A stretch of 64,000 bases of DNA from an uncultured bacterium (GTDB lineage: Bacteria > Zixibacteria > MSB-5A5 > GN15 > FEB-12), in the NCBI GenBank assembly GCA_965372795.1, contig CBDVDR010000014.1, positions 23,391-87,390 on the forward strand, in the 5' to 3' direction. Below are positions 9,884-43,217 of this stretch, in pieces (the stretch's first letter is position 1; each line of letters starts with the position of its first letter). The notes below the pieces were generated by a model. The model did not search any database. It was not told the DNA's origin and saw only the letters and a program-made list of their open reading frames with translations. The position numbers and the translations under genes were made by a program.

Positions 9884-11125
9884 TTGCATAATAGAAACTT
9901 CAATATCTTTCGATACCCCATCAGTATAGGTTTAATTTTAGCAATATTATTGATTATTAGCAATGGAACTGCTAATTCGATTGAGTTGCGGGGGAAATTT
10001 AACTCTGATTTATATATCTGGACAGACAGTTCCGAATCCCATTTCAGACCGTATGAACAATTAAGAACCGATATTATTTTTTCAAGACCATCCCGAGGCA
10101 AACAGATATCTTTTCACTCAAATATCAGATGGAGAAACGATTTTCAGGATCAGCTCCCGGATGACCCTCAATTATTTATTTATGATGGTTTCTTAAGAAT
10201 TGAAAACATGATCGGGTCAAGCCTGATACAATTAGGCCGTCAATATTATTACAATGGTGCCGGAAGCGCCCATTTTGACGGACTTAGAACTCAATACAAA
10301 TTCGGTAAAAAGTTTAAAGTTAATTTTTTTGGAGGAAGCCGGGTAAACCGTCTTGACCCTGAGACAATTAAATCATTTTCAGAATCCGGAATTATGGGGA
10401 GTAAACTTCAAATATCCGGAATCAGAAGAACAAATTTGAACTTTAGCTGGCTGGCAAAGCTCGAAGAAGATAATATTGTTTATAATAAAGCCACAATAGA
10501 TATTAAAAAAAGAAGCCGGTTTTGGGTTTTTTATGGTAAAGCAGGATTTAATATTCTCAATAAGCGATTATCGGATATTTTATCCCGCGCAATTTTCACA
10601 AATAATGAATGGCGGATTTCTGCTGAATACAGCAAACGAGAACCTTCTCTGTTTGGAAATACAATTTTCTCTATCATTGACTATAAAAAAAATAAAACTC
10701 TAAGATTAAATCTGAATCGTCATATTAATAGCAGGTTATCAATATTTAGCCGTTATCAAGTAAGTTTTTTCTCAGCTGAAAACTCGCGCTTGTACAATTT
10801 TGGTTTCAGTTTTAAAAATATTACTCTCTCCTATTATAAACAGACCGGGTATGGTGGAAAAAATAGCGGATTTTCAGGATCGGCATATCACTCATTAAAC
10901 AGTAACTGGCAAACTTATGCTCGATTCAATTTAAGTAAATATAAAATTCAATCACTTCAGTCTGATAATTACAAAGCCTATACAGCGGCTTTTGGAATGG
11001 ACAGGAAATTTACCGGAGGCTGGGTAGTCAGAGGTGAATATCAATATTTGAAGAATGCGATTAGCAATAATGATGTTCGGTTGTACTTCAGGGTAAGTAA
11101 GAATTTTGTTTTAGGGAAGATATAA
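9884..11125 (+). CDS. putative outer-membrane beta-barrel (porin of a porin-cytochrome conduit)
   Basis: Signal peptide, alternating amphipathic beta-strands rich in aromatic and basic residues (IQLGRQY, VRGEYQY, LYFRVSKNF); 5 nt upstream of a multiheme cytochrome gene. Confidence 0.7.
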   Translation: MHNRNFNIFRYPISIGLILAILLIISNGTANSIELRGKFNSDLYIWTDSSESHFRPYEQLRTDIIFSRPSRGKQISFHSNIRWRNDFQDQLPDDPQLFIYDGFLRIENMIGSSLIQLGRQYYYNGAGSAHFDGLRTQYKFGKKFKVNFFGGSRVNRLDPETIKSFSESGIMGSKLQISGIRRTNLNFSWLAKLEEDNIVYNKATIDIKKRSRFWVFYGKAGFNILNKRLSDILSRAIFTNNEWRISAEYSKREPSLFGNTIFSIIDYKKNKTLRLNLNRHINSRLSIFSRYQVSFFSAENSRLYNFGFSFKNITLSYYKQTGYGGKNSGFSGSAYHSLNSNWQTYARFNLSKYKIQSLQSDNYKAYTAAFGMDRKFTGGWVVRGEYQYLKNAISNNDVRLYFRVSKNFVLGKI

Positions 11126-38481: not shown

Positions 38482-39066
38482 TTAATTAATATTACAAACA
38501 TGACAATCAACCGGTGGCGGTGATCCCGGCACAAACATGAAATCAACAAAATAAGTGAGATCAGAAATACCTAAATCACAATCATTATTATTATCAAATT
38601 CTTCAGTACAAATCGGTGGCGGGGAACCGGGTACAAACATGAAATCAATAAAATAAGTAAGATCAGAAATACCAACCTCAGTATCCCCATTTGCATCTCC
38701 CGGCAAATCACAACATTCAATAATTGGGATTTCCATAAATATTGTATCTTTCATAGTTGTCGGATGAATCCCACATAAATACGGAAATGGTCCCGGACCG
38801 TCTTCTAACAAAAATGCCACTTCAAAAAAAGACCCAACAGTGCTCATATTTCCCGAATTCCATTGCTTAGGTGAATCAATTGTGGAAGTAGTTGTATGAA
38901 AACCACTTGCCAAGGTCCATCGAACGGTATCTCCGGGTTGAACTACTGTTTTTTCTGGTGAAAAGAAAAAATCACCAAAACTGATTTGGTGAATAGTAGC
39001 AAAGACATTGGAATTCATTAAAGTCAAAAATCCTACTACTATCAGGAAATTTTTTACTTCTTTCAC
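38482..39066 (-). CDS. secreted cupredoxin (type-1 Cu) fused to a dockerin-like domain
   Basis: Signal peptide; F.P....V.PGDTVRW..HTTT..YLCGIH..TM Cu ligands; two ISDLTYF.DFMF.PG..PP repeats. Confidence 0.85.
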   Translation of the reverse strand: MKEVKNFLIVVGFLTLMNSNVFATIHQISFGDFFFSPEKTVVQPGDTVRWTLASGFHTTTSTIDSPKQWNSGNMSTVGSFFEVAFLLEDGPGPFPYLCGIHPTTMKDTIFMEIPIIECCDLPGDANGDTEVGISDLTYFIDFMFVPGSPPPICTEEFDNNNDCDLGISDLTYFVDFMFVPGSPPPVDCHVCNIN

Positions 39067-39114
39067 AATAGAATCCTCTTTTATTCAATTTTTATATAAA
39101 ACGATATGATTGAC

Positions 39115-39241
39115 AAAAATAAAACAAACAGGGGCTATGACACCCCTGAATGCTATCCTGTTAAGACAGATATAGAGAGGAAACTCTTAAATCCAAAACA
39201 GGGATAATTCACTTACCTATTTACCATTGAAAATTATAACA
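39115..39241 (-). promoter_or_regulatory. structured 5' leader with extended -10 and intrinsic terminator upstream of the cupredoxin gene
   Basis: Minus strand: TGtTATAAT (39233-39241), a long imperfect hairpin, then CAGGGGU-gucaua-GCCCCUG-UUUGUUUUAUUUUU (39129-39148). Confidence 0.55.
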
Positions 39242-39460
39242 TAATTTAATACTTAATTGTTCCTCTATCTTGGATTATTTTGATCTTTTTTAAGGTGTAT
39301 TAGTTATCGGTCAAAATACTATCTATATTTAATTTTATTTTTGGGGTTGTTTGGAGAACAATACCAAGAAAAAGTATCAAAATTGCTTTTGTTGACTCCG
39401 ATTTTATAAAAAGATAAATTTATACGTTCAAAGTTATAATCATAATTGAAAGGAAATTCT

Positions 39461-40057
39461 GTGAAAAAATTAATTCTATTAGTTCTGATTGCTGCAATCC
39501 TCACCGGCTGTGGCTCATCAACAAAAGTCTACCGGATCGATGAAAAAACGGTAACCGATTTAAGTGGAAAATGGAATGACACTGATGCTCGTTTAGTTGC
39601 CGAGGAAATGATCTCTGATTGTTTGTCACGCCCATGGTTGACTGATTTTGTTATGAAAAACAGTCAAAAACCGGTTGTGACGGTTGGCACTATTCGCAAC
39701 AGGAGTGATGAACACATCGACACCGAAATTTTCTCTAAAGATTTCGAAAGAGAACTGATCAATTCATCTCAGGTTAGATTTGTTGCCAGCAGTGGTCAAC
39801 GTGATGAACTTCGCGGTGAAAGAATGGATCAAAGCGAGTTTGCCTCAAAAGAAACCATGAAAAAACTTCGTGAAGAAACCGGCGCCGATTATCTTTTAAT
39901 GGGCTCAATCAAAACTATCACCGATCAAGCTGAAGGTGTTCGGGTTGTATTCTATCAAACCGATCTGGAATTGATTGATATTGAAAGCATGGAAAAAGTT
40001 TGGATTAATACTAAGAAAATTAAAAAAGAAATTTCCAAGTCTAAAACAAAGTGGTAA
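39461..40057 (+). CDS. LpoB-like lipoprotein (PBP activator family)
   Basis: Lipobox LTGC; DLSG.WNDTD, NRSDEHID, GADY.L.GSI, YQ.DLEL.D....VW. Confidence 0.75.
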   Translation: MKKLILLVLIAAILTGCGSSTKVYRIDEKTVTDLSGKWNDTDARLVAEEMISDCLSRPWLTDFVMKNSQKPVVTVGTIRNRSDEHIDTEIFSKDFERELINSSQVRFVASSGQRDELRGERMDQSEFASKETMKKLREETGADYLLMGSIKTITDQAEGVRVVFYQTDLELIDIESMEKVWINTKKIKKEISKSKTKW

Positions 40058-41463
40058 ATCAGCGACACATATTTTCTTTGAAGTATATCTGTTTACCGCT
40101 TTTTGTCGGGTTGTTGCTATTTAGCGGATGTAGTTCTTTAGCGACGAAAAACAAATTCTATTCTCCGATCACTCAAGAGCTGCGCCAGAATAATTTTGAC
40201 AAAGTTGTCGAAAAAATAGAACAAGCCCGACGTGAAAATAAATGGGCAGGCAAAGATAGATTCCTATATTATTTAGATGCCGGTTTAGCCCACCATTTTG
40301 CCGGCAATTACGATTCGAGCAATTTGAGGCTCGCCGAGGCAGAGAGATCCGCCGATGAACTTTTCACTAAAAGCATCTCAAAAGCTGCAGCTTCAATCCT
40401 CTTAAATGATAATGTTCTGGAATATGCCGGAGAGGATTATGAAATACTATACACCAATCTGATAATGGCAATGAACTATCTTGCCATGGGAAAATTTGAT
40501 GATGCTTTTGTAGAGGTCAGAAGAGTTAATGAAAAACTCGAACTTTTGGATCGGAAGTATGCCGATGCTGCTCAACGGTATCAATCGCATTCTAAAGATG
40601 ATACTACCGGTGTAGAAATACAATATGAGGCAAAGAAAGTACGTTTCAATAACGATGCCTTTGCCAGGTATCTGAGTATGCATATCTACGCTGCTGATGG
40701 TCAGTATGATGACGCCCGGATAGATTATAACTGGCTCTTAAGAGCTTTTACCGAACAACCACATATTTATGACTTTACTGTTCCGGAAGTCACTTATTAT
40801 TCAAAAGATAAAGCAATTTTGAGTATTGTTGCCATGACCGGAGCAGCACCTTTGAAAGTAGCCTTTAACCTTAGAATACGAACCGATAAAGACCTTAATC
40901 TGGTTCAGGTACTATCAACCGATATCAATGGGGTTGAATCAAATTATGGGCAGATTCCAATCCCCGTTTCTGCTGACTATTATTTCAAATTTTCAATTCC
41001 AAAATTGAAAACAAAGCCATCTGAGGTTAACGAAATTCGAGTCTATGCCAACAACAGACCAATAGGATCTCTTCAGTTAATAGAAAAAATATCTAATGTC
41101 GCCGCTGAAACTTTTGAAGCTAAAAAGTCATTGATATATCTGCGATCTATCGGTCGAGCTGTTTTTAAAGGTCTCACCGCTCATAATATGAAAAAGAAAG
41201 CTGATACCGGGGGACTTGGGGGATGGCTAAAAAAAGCCGCTATTGATGTCGGGATGGATCTTATTGAAAATGCTGACCTCAGATCATCACACCTTCTTCC
41301 CGGTCAAATTTATGTCGGAGATTTTGAGATTGAACCCGGTACTTATAACCTGGTAATAGATTTTTTAGACGTCGAGGGAAGATTACTTTATCAAAAAAAG
41401 ATCAGAGAATGCTCAGTTAAAAAGAATTATTTTAACCTATCAGAAGCTATTTTTCTGAACTAA
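40051..41463 (+). CDS. COG3014-like TPR lipoprotein
   Basis: Lipobox FSGC; LYYLDAG, Y.GEDYE, A.VEVRR, ADLRS..LLP; typical neighbour of LpoB. Confidence 0.7.
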   Translation: MVNQRHIFSLKYICLPLFVGLLLFSGCSSLATKNKFYSPITQELRQNNFDKVVEKIEQARRENKWAGKDRFLYYLDAGLAHHFAGNYDSSNLRLAEAERSADELFTKSISKAAASILLNDNVLEYAGEDYEILYTNLIMAMNYLAMGKFDDAFVEVRRVNEKLELLDRKYADAAQRYQSHSKDDTTGVEIQYEAKKVRFNNDAFARYLSMHIYAADGQYDDARIDYNWLLRAFTEQPHIYDFTVPEVTYYSKDKAILSIVAMTGAAPLKVAFNLRIRTDKDLNLVQVLSTDINGVESNYGQIPIPVSADYYFKFSIPKLKTKPSEVNEIRVYANNRPIGSLQLIEKISNVAAETFEAKKSLIYLRSIGRAVFKGLTAHNMKKKADTGGLGGWLKKAAIDVGMDLIENADLRSSHLLPGQIYVGDFEIEPGTYNLVIDFLDVEGRLLYQKKIRECSVKKNYFNLSEAIFLN

Positions 41464-41467
41464 CAAT

Positions 41468-41731
41468 ATGAAAGATCATGATTATCCGATAGATGGTACT
41501 CTGGATCTACATCATTTTGCTCCCAAAGACACCAAGGAAGTTGTCGAAGAATATATCAGAGTATGCCTTGAAAAAGGGATTACAAAAATTCGAATTGTTC
41601 ATGGTAAAGGAATCGGAGTCAAGCGAACAATCGTTCACAAAATCCTTGAAAATCATCCCCGTGTAAAATCTTTTACCCATGAGGGCGGCAGCGGTGGCGG
41701 ATGGGGTGCAACGATAGTTGATTTAAAATAA
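41468..41731 (+). CDS. Smr/MutS2 C-terminal domain protein
   Basis: LDLH, IVHGKG.G, GGWGATIV. Confidence 0.9.
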   Translation: MKDHDYPIDGTLDLHHFAPKDTKEVVEEYIRVCLEKGITKIRIVHGKGIGVKRTIVHKILENHPRVKSFTHEGGSGGGWGATIVDLK

Positions 41732-41742
41732 AATTATACTTT

Positions 41743-41776
41743 AAAAATCGCAAGCTCTGCCCGAAGACAGAGCTTG
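41743..41776 (-). terminator. intrinsic terminator of the structured RNA
   Basis: CAAGCUCUGUC-UUCG-GGCAGAGCUUG-cga-UUUUU. Confidence 0.75.
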
Positions 41777-42024
41777 ACGCTAGGTGAGCCCATAAATTGG
41801 TGGGCTACAAGCTGGATTCGCGAAGAATCCAGTATCTCAATTAGTGTGACACAGATTCTCCAGCCAGCTGACGTTAGAAGCGATCTTCTATTGACCACGG
41901 CCTAAACCGTAAATTTTTATACTTAGAAAAGAGTAGTCGACAATCTGTCACCGGTTGAATAACAATAAGACCACCGGAGACTGCACAGAGATTTTTAATA
42001 ACAGTCGTTTAAAATATGTGCTCT

Positions 42025-42159
42025 TTAATTCGACTGTCGATACCGGGGAATGCATTTGCTCGATTTACAGACCTGTACGCGCCAGGCACAAAATGACATC
42101 AACATTACAAACAAAAAAATAATCATTGTAAAATTGATAAAAAATGAGCAATCGAGCAT
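42025..42159 (-). CDS. possible 44-aa single-TM peptide (type I toxin-like) within the structured RNA
   Basis: GGAG 5 nt before ATG; MLDCSFFINFTMIIFLFVMLMSFCAWRVQVCKSSKCIPRYRQSN*. Confidence 0.35.
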   Translation of the reverse strand: MLDCSFFINFTMIIFLFVMLMSFCAWRVQVCKSSKCIPRYRQSN

Positions 42160-42229
42160 CGTTACTCCACTGATATATGTTACCTAATGTCCAGTCGCCA
42201 GGGGTCGTCCTACCCTAACTTTCAATTTT

Positions 42230-42258
42230 AATCTAATATGAAAAGGCTTGACTGTCAA
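42230..42258 (-). promoter_or_regulatory. sigma70-type promoter
   Basis: TTGACA (42258-42253), 17-nt spacer, TAGATT (42235-42230); the -35 lies inside palindrome CTTGAC-T-GTCAAG. Confidence 0.65.
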
Positions 42259-42359
42259 GGGAAATCAAGCTTTAAAAAAAGTAAAAGTGATAAAATATTA
42301 TTATTCAAACAGAATCATGGACTATAACTGGTTATTTTCCACCTTGTAAAATAATTTAA

Positions 42360-43217
42360 TCAGTCCTTTAGCTTACTTAACTTATCAATAAACTCTCTCG
42401 CTTCTCGTTTTGACAAGCCTTCACTGACTAATTCTTCAAGATTCCAATCAACATTACTAATTTTTTTATTAAGAACATTCATTTCAGTACCTGAAAATCC
42501 GAATGCATTTACCATAAAATCCAAAAATGCTTCATAAGCAACCGGACAAACCGCTTTTACCATCTCTGCCATCACATTCGCATAAACCTGAATCTCTTTT
42601 TGTGCGTGAGTATCCATCCGTAATTTCAAAAAATGAAATAAATTGTGAAGATCAATTTTCCAATACCACTCGGTATAGAGTGATAGCGGCAAACTAATTC
42701 TTGCGATCTCCCTCGCTAATCCTTCATCAACAAATTTCATATAATTTTTATAGGCATCTTTTTGTGAACTATTTAAATAGTCCAAAACTTCTTGTTTCAA
42801 TTGATCCGGAACATCTTTTTCGGATCTCCCCTGTTTATTTACAGTTGATTGAAACCTGATATCATCAGTATTCGGCATAAAAAATTCATCTTTCATAACC
42901 GAATATCTACCCGAATATTCATTCACATTTGCAGATCTATGGCGAATCCATTGACGAGCGACAAAAATTGGCAGTTTTACATGAAATTTAAATTCAACCA
43001 TTTCAAACGGGGTTGTATGGCGATGACGCATTAAGTACCGAATAAGTCCTCTGTCTTCGGAGACTTTTTTTGTACCTTCACCGTAACTGACTCTGGCTGC
43101 TTGAACAATAGCATTATCGGAGCCCATATAATCAATCAGTCGAATAAAACCATGATCTAATACCTTAAATTCTTTATCGAGCAGGGCATCAGCTTTTTCA
43201 TTTAATTCGTGTGCCAT
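42360..43217 (-). CDS. thyX: FAD-dependent thymidylate synthase
   Basis: AARVSY, RHTTPFE, RQWIRHR...NEYSGRY, LR...HAQ.EI. Confidence 0.97.
   Translation of the reverse strand: MAHELNEKADALLDKEFKVLDHGFIRLIDYMGSDNAIVQAARVSYGEGTKKVSEDRGLIRYLMRHRHTTPFEMVEFKFHVKLPIFVARQWIRHRSANVNEYSGRYSVMKDEFFMPNTDDIRFQSTVNKQGRSEKDVPDQLKQEVLDYLNSSQKDAYKNYMKFVDEGLAREIARISLPLSLYTEWYWKIDLHNLFHFLKLRMDTHAQKEIQVYANVMAEMVKAVCPVAYEAFLDFMVNAFGFSGTEMNVLNKKISNVDWNLEELVSEGLSKREAREFIDKLSKLKD

Follow-up and report, generated by a model that had tools for sequence, protein, structure and literature searches.

The locus between thyX and the Smr gene

The stretch of DNA analysed here, termed the window, comprises 64,000 nucleotides of contig CBDVDR010000014.1 (C14) in the genome (G000, 98.65% complete) of an uncultured bacterium assigned to the Zixibacteria. 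Between thyX and a gene for an Smr domain the minus strand carries a unit bounded by a promoter and a terminator (41743..42258), which a previous sequence-only reading had taken for a large, possibly undescribed non-coding RNA. Comparison with related genomes identifies the unit as the 5′ leader of a giant protein gene joined to the 3′ end of that gene, the coding sequence between them having been lost. That this remnant has been kept because its RNA acts is our preferred explanation, to which we would assign a probability of about 0.6.

The upstream neighbour, thyX (42360..43217, minus strand; ThyX, PF02511), shares the strand of the unit. The downstream neighbour (41468..41731, plus strand; PF01713) encodes 87 amino acids, an Smr domain alone, and is convergent with the unit, ending within about 12 nucleotides of its U tract. 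A 470-residue open reading frame (ORF) directly upstream of Smr (40051-41463, plus strand) matches no Pfam family at E ≤ 0.01.

The promoter is sigma-70-like, with TTGACA and TAGATT separated by 17 nucleotides (42230..42258, minus strand; 10 of 12 matches). Its -35 box, CTTGACA, is kept in the related loci described below, reduced and intact, and TTGAC occurs in every aligned row. The unit ends in an intrinsic terminator with U tract (41743..41776, minus strand), formed by a hairpin at 41776-41751 and then CGATTTTT. Both elements had been reported in the sequence-only reading, and the hairpin is the sole terminator-like site in 41400-42500. The plus strand of that interval has no terminator-like site, and the promoter-like sites on the plus strand are only two, both weak with nine of 12 matches. 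The region had also been described as richer in G+C than other intergenic DNA nearby. This is correct: the fraction is 0.40-0.44 over 41600-42099 as against 0.30-0.32 over 42100-42499 and 0.25-0.30 in intergenic DNA near 39000-39499.

The unit corresponds to no described RNA family. A search of the whole window with the 4,227 models of Rfam 15 gave no match at the gathering score and, at E ≤ 10, the interval 41400-42600 gave four weak matches alone, of 13.8-16.5 bits. ARAGORN found no tRNA or transfer-messenger RNA (tmRNA) anywhere in the window. No signature of RNase P RNA or tmRNA had been seen in the unit, and genuine examples of both (295 and 185 bits, respectively) sit on other contigs of G000, which rules out that the unit is a divergent form of either. 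BLAST searches over 40 relatives returned a single match, in the congener G001, and G000 carries no further copy. Literature searches listed no paper on the unit and none on the type IX secretion system (T9SS) in Zixibacteria.

A strong fold is predicted. The minimum free energy (MFE) of a 491-nucleotide stretch is -152.4 kcal/mol compared with -123.2 ± 5.6 kcal/mol for 100 shuffled sequences, none of which folded as well (z = -5.23). The 14 helices named in the sequence-only reading are all present, and the coordinates stated for them are exact; 12 pair at every position and two carry one mismatch each (GUUAGGGU/ACCCCUGGC, seven of eight positions; GACAUUAGGU/ACCUAGCGUC, nine of ten). Eight of the 14 occur in the MFE structure. 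The mean pair probability is no more than 0.07 for the 5′ hairpin, the long-range closing helix, CCGGU/ACCGG, ACAGAUU/AAUCUGU and CUGGAUUC/GAAUCCAG, while ACGG/CCGU is absent from the MFE structure yet reaches 0.61. The 5′ hairpin GUUAGGG/CCCUGGC (42197..42219, minus strand) is lineage-specific; its counterpart in G001 is GUUAGGG/CCCUAAC and other genera have a different hairpin here.

Conservation, judged from G000 and G001 and more widely, is confined to the ends of the unit, with about 90 nucleotides at the 5′ end and about 150 at the 3′ end. The middle (41895..42120, minus strand), which holds most of the named helices, is unalignable even with the other species of the genus. The long-range closing helix is invariant over a core of 5-6 base pairs, with no compensatory change, and of the six lineages compared four (G000, G001, G110 and G004) give it a predicted probability of at most 0.004, the values for G111 and G086 being 0.15 and 0.37, respectively. 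The description of the unit as a ~480-nucleotide multi-helix RNA with long-range closure has to be abandoned, and with it the global fold and the central helices. What survives of it is a unit of no described family that encodes no conserved protein, with a promoter and terminator of its own and conserved ends.

An intact giant gene in sister genomes

The conserved ends were sought in a sample of 108 genomes of the family using three models. R1, a covariance model, represents the 3′ domain as it stands in G000 and G001 only, R2 is a second model of that domain built from ten sequences, and R3 is a sequence model of the leader core. R1 identified homologues in three further genera. Pattern scans found five loci on public genome contigs, one of them new, and six on metagenome contigs, of which R1 confirmed four (not L024 or L025).

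R2 matched over its full length in numerous genera of the family. At 19 of 24 newly fetched loci a convergent Smr gene adjoins the match. Eighteen of these 19 matches represent the 3′ end of an open frame, ...GVYFYRLxAGxFSxTKKMVLLK*, followed by a short 3′ untranslated region (UTR) and a terminator; the other is the reduced locus of G086. With filters off and at E < 0.01, R1 arrives at these same sites in 13 of 22 loci. The open frames end in a T9SS sorting domain. Such domains are numerous, G000 alone having 45 sorting-domain ORFs, none of them on C14. That the best R2 match should adjoin Smr, when each genome carries dozens of sorting-domain genes, indicates orthology rather than general domain similarity. 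Elsewhere in the window, at 10420-10532 (plus strand), a weak R1 match (10 bits, E 0.8) may mark the 3′ end of another T9SS sorting-domain gene.

The ORFs bracketed by the 5′ and 3′ blocks were read in four loci. They encode 3,088 amino acids in G015, 3,118 in G005, 979 and 2,134 in G045, and more than 1,107, up to the end of the contig, in G060. The G015 protein contains Big_9/PKD repeats and a Por_Secre_tail T9SS type A sorting domain, for which TIGR04183 gives 40.6 bits (cut-off 23). Its gene stands between thyX, on the same strand, and a convergent Smr gene, precisely the position that the unit occupies in the window. In G045 the gene is split into two overlapping frames of 2,134 and 979 residues (L060 605-7009 and 6942-9881, minus strand), which may reflect a frameshift, as an early stage of decay, or an assembly error.

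The distance between the two blocks, where they share a contig and strand, takes two ranges. It is 9.0-11.0 kb in 13 genomes from ten genera (G045, G046, G047, G015, G088, G005, G002, G104, G003, G089, G011, G050 and G123) and 0.34-0.48 kb in ten genomes from five genera (G000, G001, G004, G110, G111, G041, G043, G020, G054 and G056), the value in the window being 0.45 kb. A sixth reduced genus, represented by G086, is also short, has no R3 match and has lost the core of the upstream ORF described below. In at least 11 genomes thyX lies no more than about 300 nucleotides upstream of the leader. The thyX match of G001 (L105, G001:C27:4178-5023) includes one in-frame TGA.

The protein itself is gone from the reduced genomes. 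Searched with the N-terminal 700 residues of the G005 protein, G045 gives 946 bits and G015 gives 457 bits, but G000, G001, G110 and G111 yield nothing above 31.5 bits, with matches at the level of repeats only; the giant protein has been lost from all four of the reduced genomes searched. An open frame ending in a sorting domain, present at the sister loci, is missing from the unit, and the non-conserved middle occupies the site of the coding sequence of about 9.3 kb found in sister genera. The homology of both ends to the intact gene, the shared synteny and the absence of the protein, combined with the decay of the frame considered below, show that the unit is the leader of a lost giant gene fused to its 3′ end following a loss of about 9 kb.

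The ancestral arrangement would have been thyX, then a gene of about 9.3 kb for an Ig/PKD-repeat protein of about 3,100 residues exported by the type IX route, then the convergent Smr gene. Loss of the coding sequence would have brought the promoter and 5′ leader directly to the last ~70 coding nucleotides, with the 3′ UTR and terminator behind them, and transcription from the old promoter to the old terminator would be expected to continue.

These observations bear on the simplest view of the unit, that it is an ancient free-standing multi-helix RNA of some 480 nucleotides with long-range closure and no relation to any coding gene. The z-score of -5.2, the unit's own promoter and terminator and the lack of an Rfam family would all suit such a molecule. 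It is contradicted by the homology of the two ends with the leader and 3′ end of a 9.3-kb gene and by the spacing of 9-11 kb in 13 genomes; moreover the DNA of the central helices is unconserved and the closing helix lacks both covariation and thermodynamic support. We consider this view scarcely tenable.

The conserved ends and their retention

The 3′ block begins with the remains of the last codons of the T9SS sorting domain (41812..41880, minus strand). The sequence UUC UAA CGU CAG CUG GCU GGA GAA derives from F-Y-R-L-K-A-G-E, and the frame is dead, with UAA in place of the tyrosine codon. Four genera (g1, g4, g54 and g48) share this TAT to TAA change together with CTGAAGG to CAGCTGG and the box GGGCTCACCTA / GGGCUCACCUA. 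Two stop codons interrupt the old frame in G111. Genus g36 has the TAA, retains CUGAAGG and possesses a 3′ UTR like that of the intact genes of genus g43. Genus g20 retains TAT, its stop codon is a different one, and at the protein level RYASGICSYRPLAGSHSAT*KTALV can still be read. A word, GAGGAGGGCGGCU, occurs both in the g36 relics (L018/L032, G041 and G043) and in the 3′ UTR of the g43 genes that remain intact (L037/L038, G060 and G059), suggesting descent of the g36 relic from a gene like those of g43.

Three hairpins are predicted in the 3′ domain. The first is a long, irregular hairpin fashioned from the decayed codons, closed by AGCUGG/CCAGCU and including GGAGAAUCUG/CUGGAUUCUU; the alternative and competing CUGGAUUC/GAAUCCAG hairpin has a probability of 0.07 in the window. 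The second, AGCCCA/UGGGCU (41787..41806, minus strand), has 88% of alignment cells paired with two pairs changed on both sides. The third is the terminator hairpin, with 97.5% of cells paired and four pairs changed on both sides. The MFE layout, with AGCUGG/CCAGCU, AGCCCN/NGGGCU and the terminator in succession, is common to five genera. AGCUGG/CCAGCU pairing is absent from intact genes; AGCCCN/NGGGCU resembles their terminator stem, from which the second hairpin is probably derived. Intact genes can form other structures here: the last codons and 3′ UTR (L036, L046 and L047) may fold as a CUGAAG-UAGAAA-CUUCAG hairpin around the stop codon, and an earlier CUGAA...UUCAG pair within the sorting-domain codons offers alternative pairings at the 3′ end of the mRNA.

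When a ten-row alignment is fitted to the model, 91.4% of cells in three hairpins of the 3′ domain pair and nine pairs have changed on both sides, a result reached by none of 500 shuffles; slid controls give 18.6-57.4%. Compensatory change, which the sequence-only reading looked to as a check on its helices, is therefore present in the three 3′ hairpins of this model-fitted alignment, as it is in the start-region helix of the leader discussed below; the central helices and the closing helix have no such support. The changes opposite G are exchanges of C and U, which fits the minus strand, in agreement with the G.U pairs noted at the outset. A count for AGCUGG/CCAGCU on the MAFFT alignment A10 was discarded, as the 3′ strand was out of register between rows, and this helix has been taken from the sequences and MFE folds only.

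Next to the terminator is the conserved box CUCACCUAGCGUC (41776..41788, minus strand), of which GGGCTCACCTA is identical in five genera. The box resembles the 3′ end of 16S rRNA, the anti-Shine-Dalgarno (anti-SD) sequence. Its candidate partners are the UAACGUCAG box and the UUAGGU box of the leader. With the former, CUARCG against UAACGUYRG, seven of seven positions would pair in G001, six of seven in G000 and G111 and three or four of seven in g4 and g48.

The 5′ block is part of a leader that precedes the intact genes. At E ≤ 0.05, R3 finds matches in 40 of the 108 family genomes, in most of them a single one; G000 has one. In G015, G005 and G045 the leaders of the giant ORFs comprise a CTTGACA promoter, the box UUAGGU(A/G)A, GGAG and AUG-nnn-GAU-UGY-U (without the AUG in G005), and the main start codon follows 110-150 nucleotides downstream of the block. 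A looser leader pattern gave four matches in five genomes; two of these, L058 and L059, were read, looked like chance and the pattern was set aside. In the window the SD-like box is AUUAGGUAA (42180..42188, minus strand), with UAGGUA common to five of six aligned rows and present, unaligned, in the sixth; most leaders of intact genes have a similar box, UUAGGUGA or UUAGGUAA. The Shine-Dalgarno (SD) sequence of an upstream ORF, GGAG, follows at 42165..42168 (minus strand), and in most leaders GGAG or GGGAG precedes the start by 6-9 nucleotides.

This upstream ORF has 44 codons in the window (42025..42159, minus strand; MLDCSFFINF...), of which only the first five, M-x-D-C-S, are conserved (42145-42159). 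The stretch AUG GAC GAU UGY UCA with its strong SD sequence, in a leader of 250-300 nucleotides, was compared in 30 leaders (L063-L092, e.g. L074, L071 and L079). A start codon stands two codons before GAU UGY in 26 of them. The predicted peptide is four residues in G015 and G022 (MADC* and MNDC*), 11-14 residues in G041, G043, G045, G046 and G047, and elsewhere extends to more than 30. The start codon is missing in G004, G110, G005 and G007, and G086 has no recognisable upstream-ORF start. A helix, UGCUCGAUU/AAUCGAGCA (42057..42158, minus strand; nine of nine pairs, probability 0.91), buries the start in the window and takes compensatory forms in G001 (UGUUCGAUU/AAUUGAAUA) and G111 (GCCCGAU/AUCGGGU). 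Another hairpin at the start, GGACG/CGUCC, has all five pairs in seven of the 30 leaders and two of five in G000. No known leader family matches. From sequence comparison the M-x-D-C-S element ahead of the giant T9SS cargo gene is a predicted conserved leader, previously undescribed, in an uncultivated phylum.

Might the unit instead be the mRNA of a small protein? The 44-codon ORF, MLDCSFFINFTMIIFLFVMLMSFCAW..., could encode a hydrophobic membrane protein akin to the hok toxin, with the 5′ and 3′ ends of the mRNA folded back on one another and the start codon buried. The AUG follows GGAG at a distance of five nucleotides, the predicted peptide is hydrophobic at its N-terminus and has a basic tail, the ORF runs to 42-44 codons in G000, G001 and G111, the start codon is held in the 9-base-pair helix with its compensatory forms, and the ORF of G001 differs from that of a variant, L027, at five sites of which three are synonymous. 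Across the leaders, however, the ORF varies in length, is absent from G004, G110, G005, G007 and G086, and conserves nothing beyond residue 5; neither peptide matches a Pfam family, and the plus strand has nothing better than its two promoter-like sites of nine matches in 12. We conclude that a leader upstream ORF has been extended into unconserved sequence. A type I toxin or other small-protein mRNA was rejected on the comparison of the 30 leaders and we judge it very unlikely.

Has the remnant been maintained by selection? At four-fold degenerate sites of thyX and Smr the identity among G000, G001, G110, G111 and G086 is 0.18-0.47, i.e. saturated, and in the 3′ domain of the same five genomes it is 0.53-0.70. 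Exact words of 22 nucleotides are shared by G000 and G001, of 21 by G000 and G110 and of 11 by G000 and G111, the last being invariant in the five-genus alignment. The survival of words of 11-22 nucleotides where neutral sites are saturated points to selection on the relic, and, the shared states being derived and non-coding, they must have been kept after the frame died. On these sequence comparisons the relic appears to be under selection, probably as a non-coding RNA.

The collapse also appears to have recurred. In g20 the genomes G020 and G056 retain the leader core and the 3′ remnant, with a middle that cannot be aligned, and the g36 relic keeps both blocks at a site away from thyX and Smr. 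From the differing states of the 3′ block in g20, in g36 and in g1, g4, g54 and g48, the coding sequence was lost at least twice, possibly three times, with the same two ends kept each time.

A neutral relic, the stump of a dead pseudogene whose blocks have simply not yet decayed, offers a different account. The dead frame, with UAA for tyrosine and the two stops of G111, is what it predicts, the middle varies freely, and in g20 and g36 a trace of the sorting domain with in-frame stops is detectable (E 0.003 and 0.004-0.012, respectively), a protein-level signal that suggests recent decay there. The account fits poorly with the persistence of words of 11-22 nucleotides beside four-fold sites of 0.18-0.47 identity, with derived non-coding states common to four genera, with the new pairing of CAGCUGG and CCAGCU, which postdates loss of the frame, and with retention of the same two ends in an independent collapse. 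We regard it as unlikely.

The unit could alternatively serve its neighbours, either as a terminator or insulator against read-through from thyX or as an antisense or 3′ UTR partner of the Smr mRNA. The Smr gene converges to within about 12 nucleotides of the U tract, has no terminator of its own before the region, and adjoins the match in the 19 of 24 fetched loci, intact and reduced alike. On the other hand g36 keeps both blocks without an adjoining thyX or Smr, a terminator leaves the leader box, SD sequence, upstream-ORF start and the box UAACGUCAGCUGGCUGG unexplained, and the G.U pairs suit the minus strand and not that of Smr. A role of this kind is distinctly improbable.

Possible action of the remnant and its relation to known RNAs

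If the remnant has been kept because its RNA acts, the remodelled 3′ domain would be a folded regulatory RNA with the AGCUGG/CCAGCU hairpin, the AGCCCA/UGGGCU hairpin and, beside the terminator, the anti-SD-like sequence CUCACCUAG. This sequence would pair with SD-like sites, either the UUAGGU of its own leader or those of other mRNAs, and the old leader would supply regulated expression. As a mode of action, a 3′ regulatory domain with CUCACCUAG as its pairing box is a tentative model. More doubtful still is the extended proposal of a regulatory RNA gene born by collapse of a 9-kb giant gene, the ends of which already formed a functional pair, and acting in trans without Hfq on the expression of genes for surface proteins or T9SS cargo. 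A pre-existing pair, the SD-like UUAGGU with the upstream ORF at one end and the anti-SD-like box at the other, would explain why precisely these parts outlived at least two independent deletions.

Several points weigh against a functional RNA of this type. Intact genes do not conserve the anti-SD-like box in this form in their 3′ UTRs. Constraint inherited from the coding sequence, or from the oppositely directed Smr transcript, may account for part of the conservation seen in the 3′ block. The covariation derives from about six independent lineages and a model-fitted alignment. On the monophyly of the reduced genera ThyX is uninformative, its identities across the family running from 58 to 85% with no clustering. 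Hfq (PF17209) was not found in G000, so that the usual chaperone of small RNAs (sRNAs) derived from 3′ ends is apparently absent; ProQ and other chaperones were not searched for. Pairing between the 5′ and 3′ ends, finally, meets the low probabilities and invariant core of the closing helix already described.

The closest parallels are the sRNAs derived from 3′ UTRs, such as CpxQ, SroC, DapZ and MicL. In common with these, the functional part would be the 3′ end of an mRNA with the terminator of that mRNA, here established by homology with the intact gene, and a conserved single-stranded box would precede it, the box GGGCUCACCUA, invariant in five genera, being the putative seed. The remnant differs in that the parent coding sequence has been deleted and the parent promoter and leader drive the 3′ end, and in the apparent absence of Hfq.

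Leader peptides such as TnaC and MgtL, encoded by tnaC and mgtL in long bacterial 5′ leaders, provide a comparison for the 5′ block. A short ORF, a strong SD sequence, a conserved N-terminus (M-x-D-C-S) and a leader of 250-300 nucleotides before a long gene are shared features, but G000 has no downstream gene left to regulate. The hok/sok mRNAs, which are inhibited by folding back, likewise combine a small hydrophobic ORF, a helix that covers its start and a potential for the two ends of the transcript to pair. In the unit that pairing is weak, the length and sequence of the ORF are not conserved (from four to more than 30 codons, with no start in four of 30 leaders, and no conserved hydrophobic toxin among them) and its origin is a leader upstream ORF. 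The large RNAs OLE, GOLLD, ROOL, HEARO and raiA resemble the unit in a length of several hundred nucleotides, a strong predicted structure and a narrow taxonomic range. They differ from it in that the unit has no Rfam match and conserves its ends rather than one global fold.

RNA genes that arose from degraded protein genes are documented in eukaryotes according to one published account (PMC4350180), in which the origin of bacterial regulatory RNAs is described as much less clear. The unit resembles those genes in having lost its frame while parts of the transcript are still selected. It differs in being bacterial, in keeping mainly two untranslated ends and in recurring in at least two lineages.

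For annotation, the locus is a caution that a strongly folding intergenic unit, complete from promoter to terminator, may be the ghost of a gene. In this family the states before and after the event can both be seen in sister genera, as an intact gene of about 9.3 kb and as a unit of 0.34-0.48 kb. If functional, the unit would offer a clear case among bacteria of a non-coding gene assembled from the two untranslated ends that a lost protein gene left behind, and it would suggest a role for both ends of the giant mRNA in their own right.

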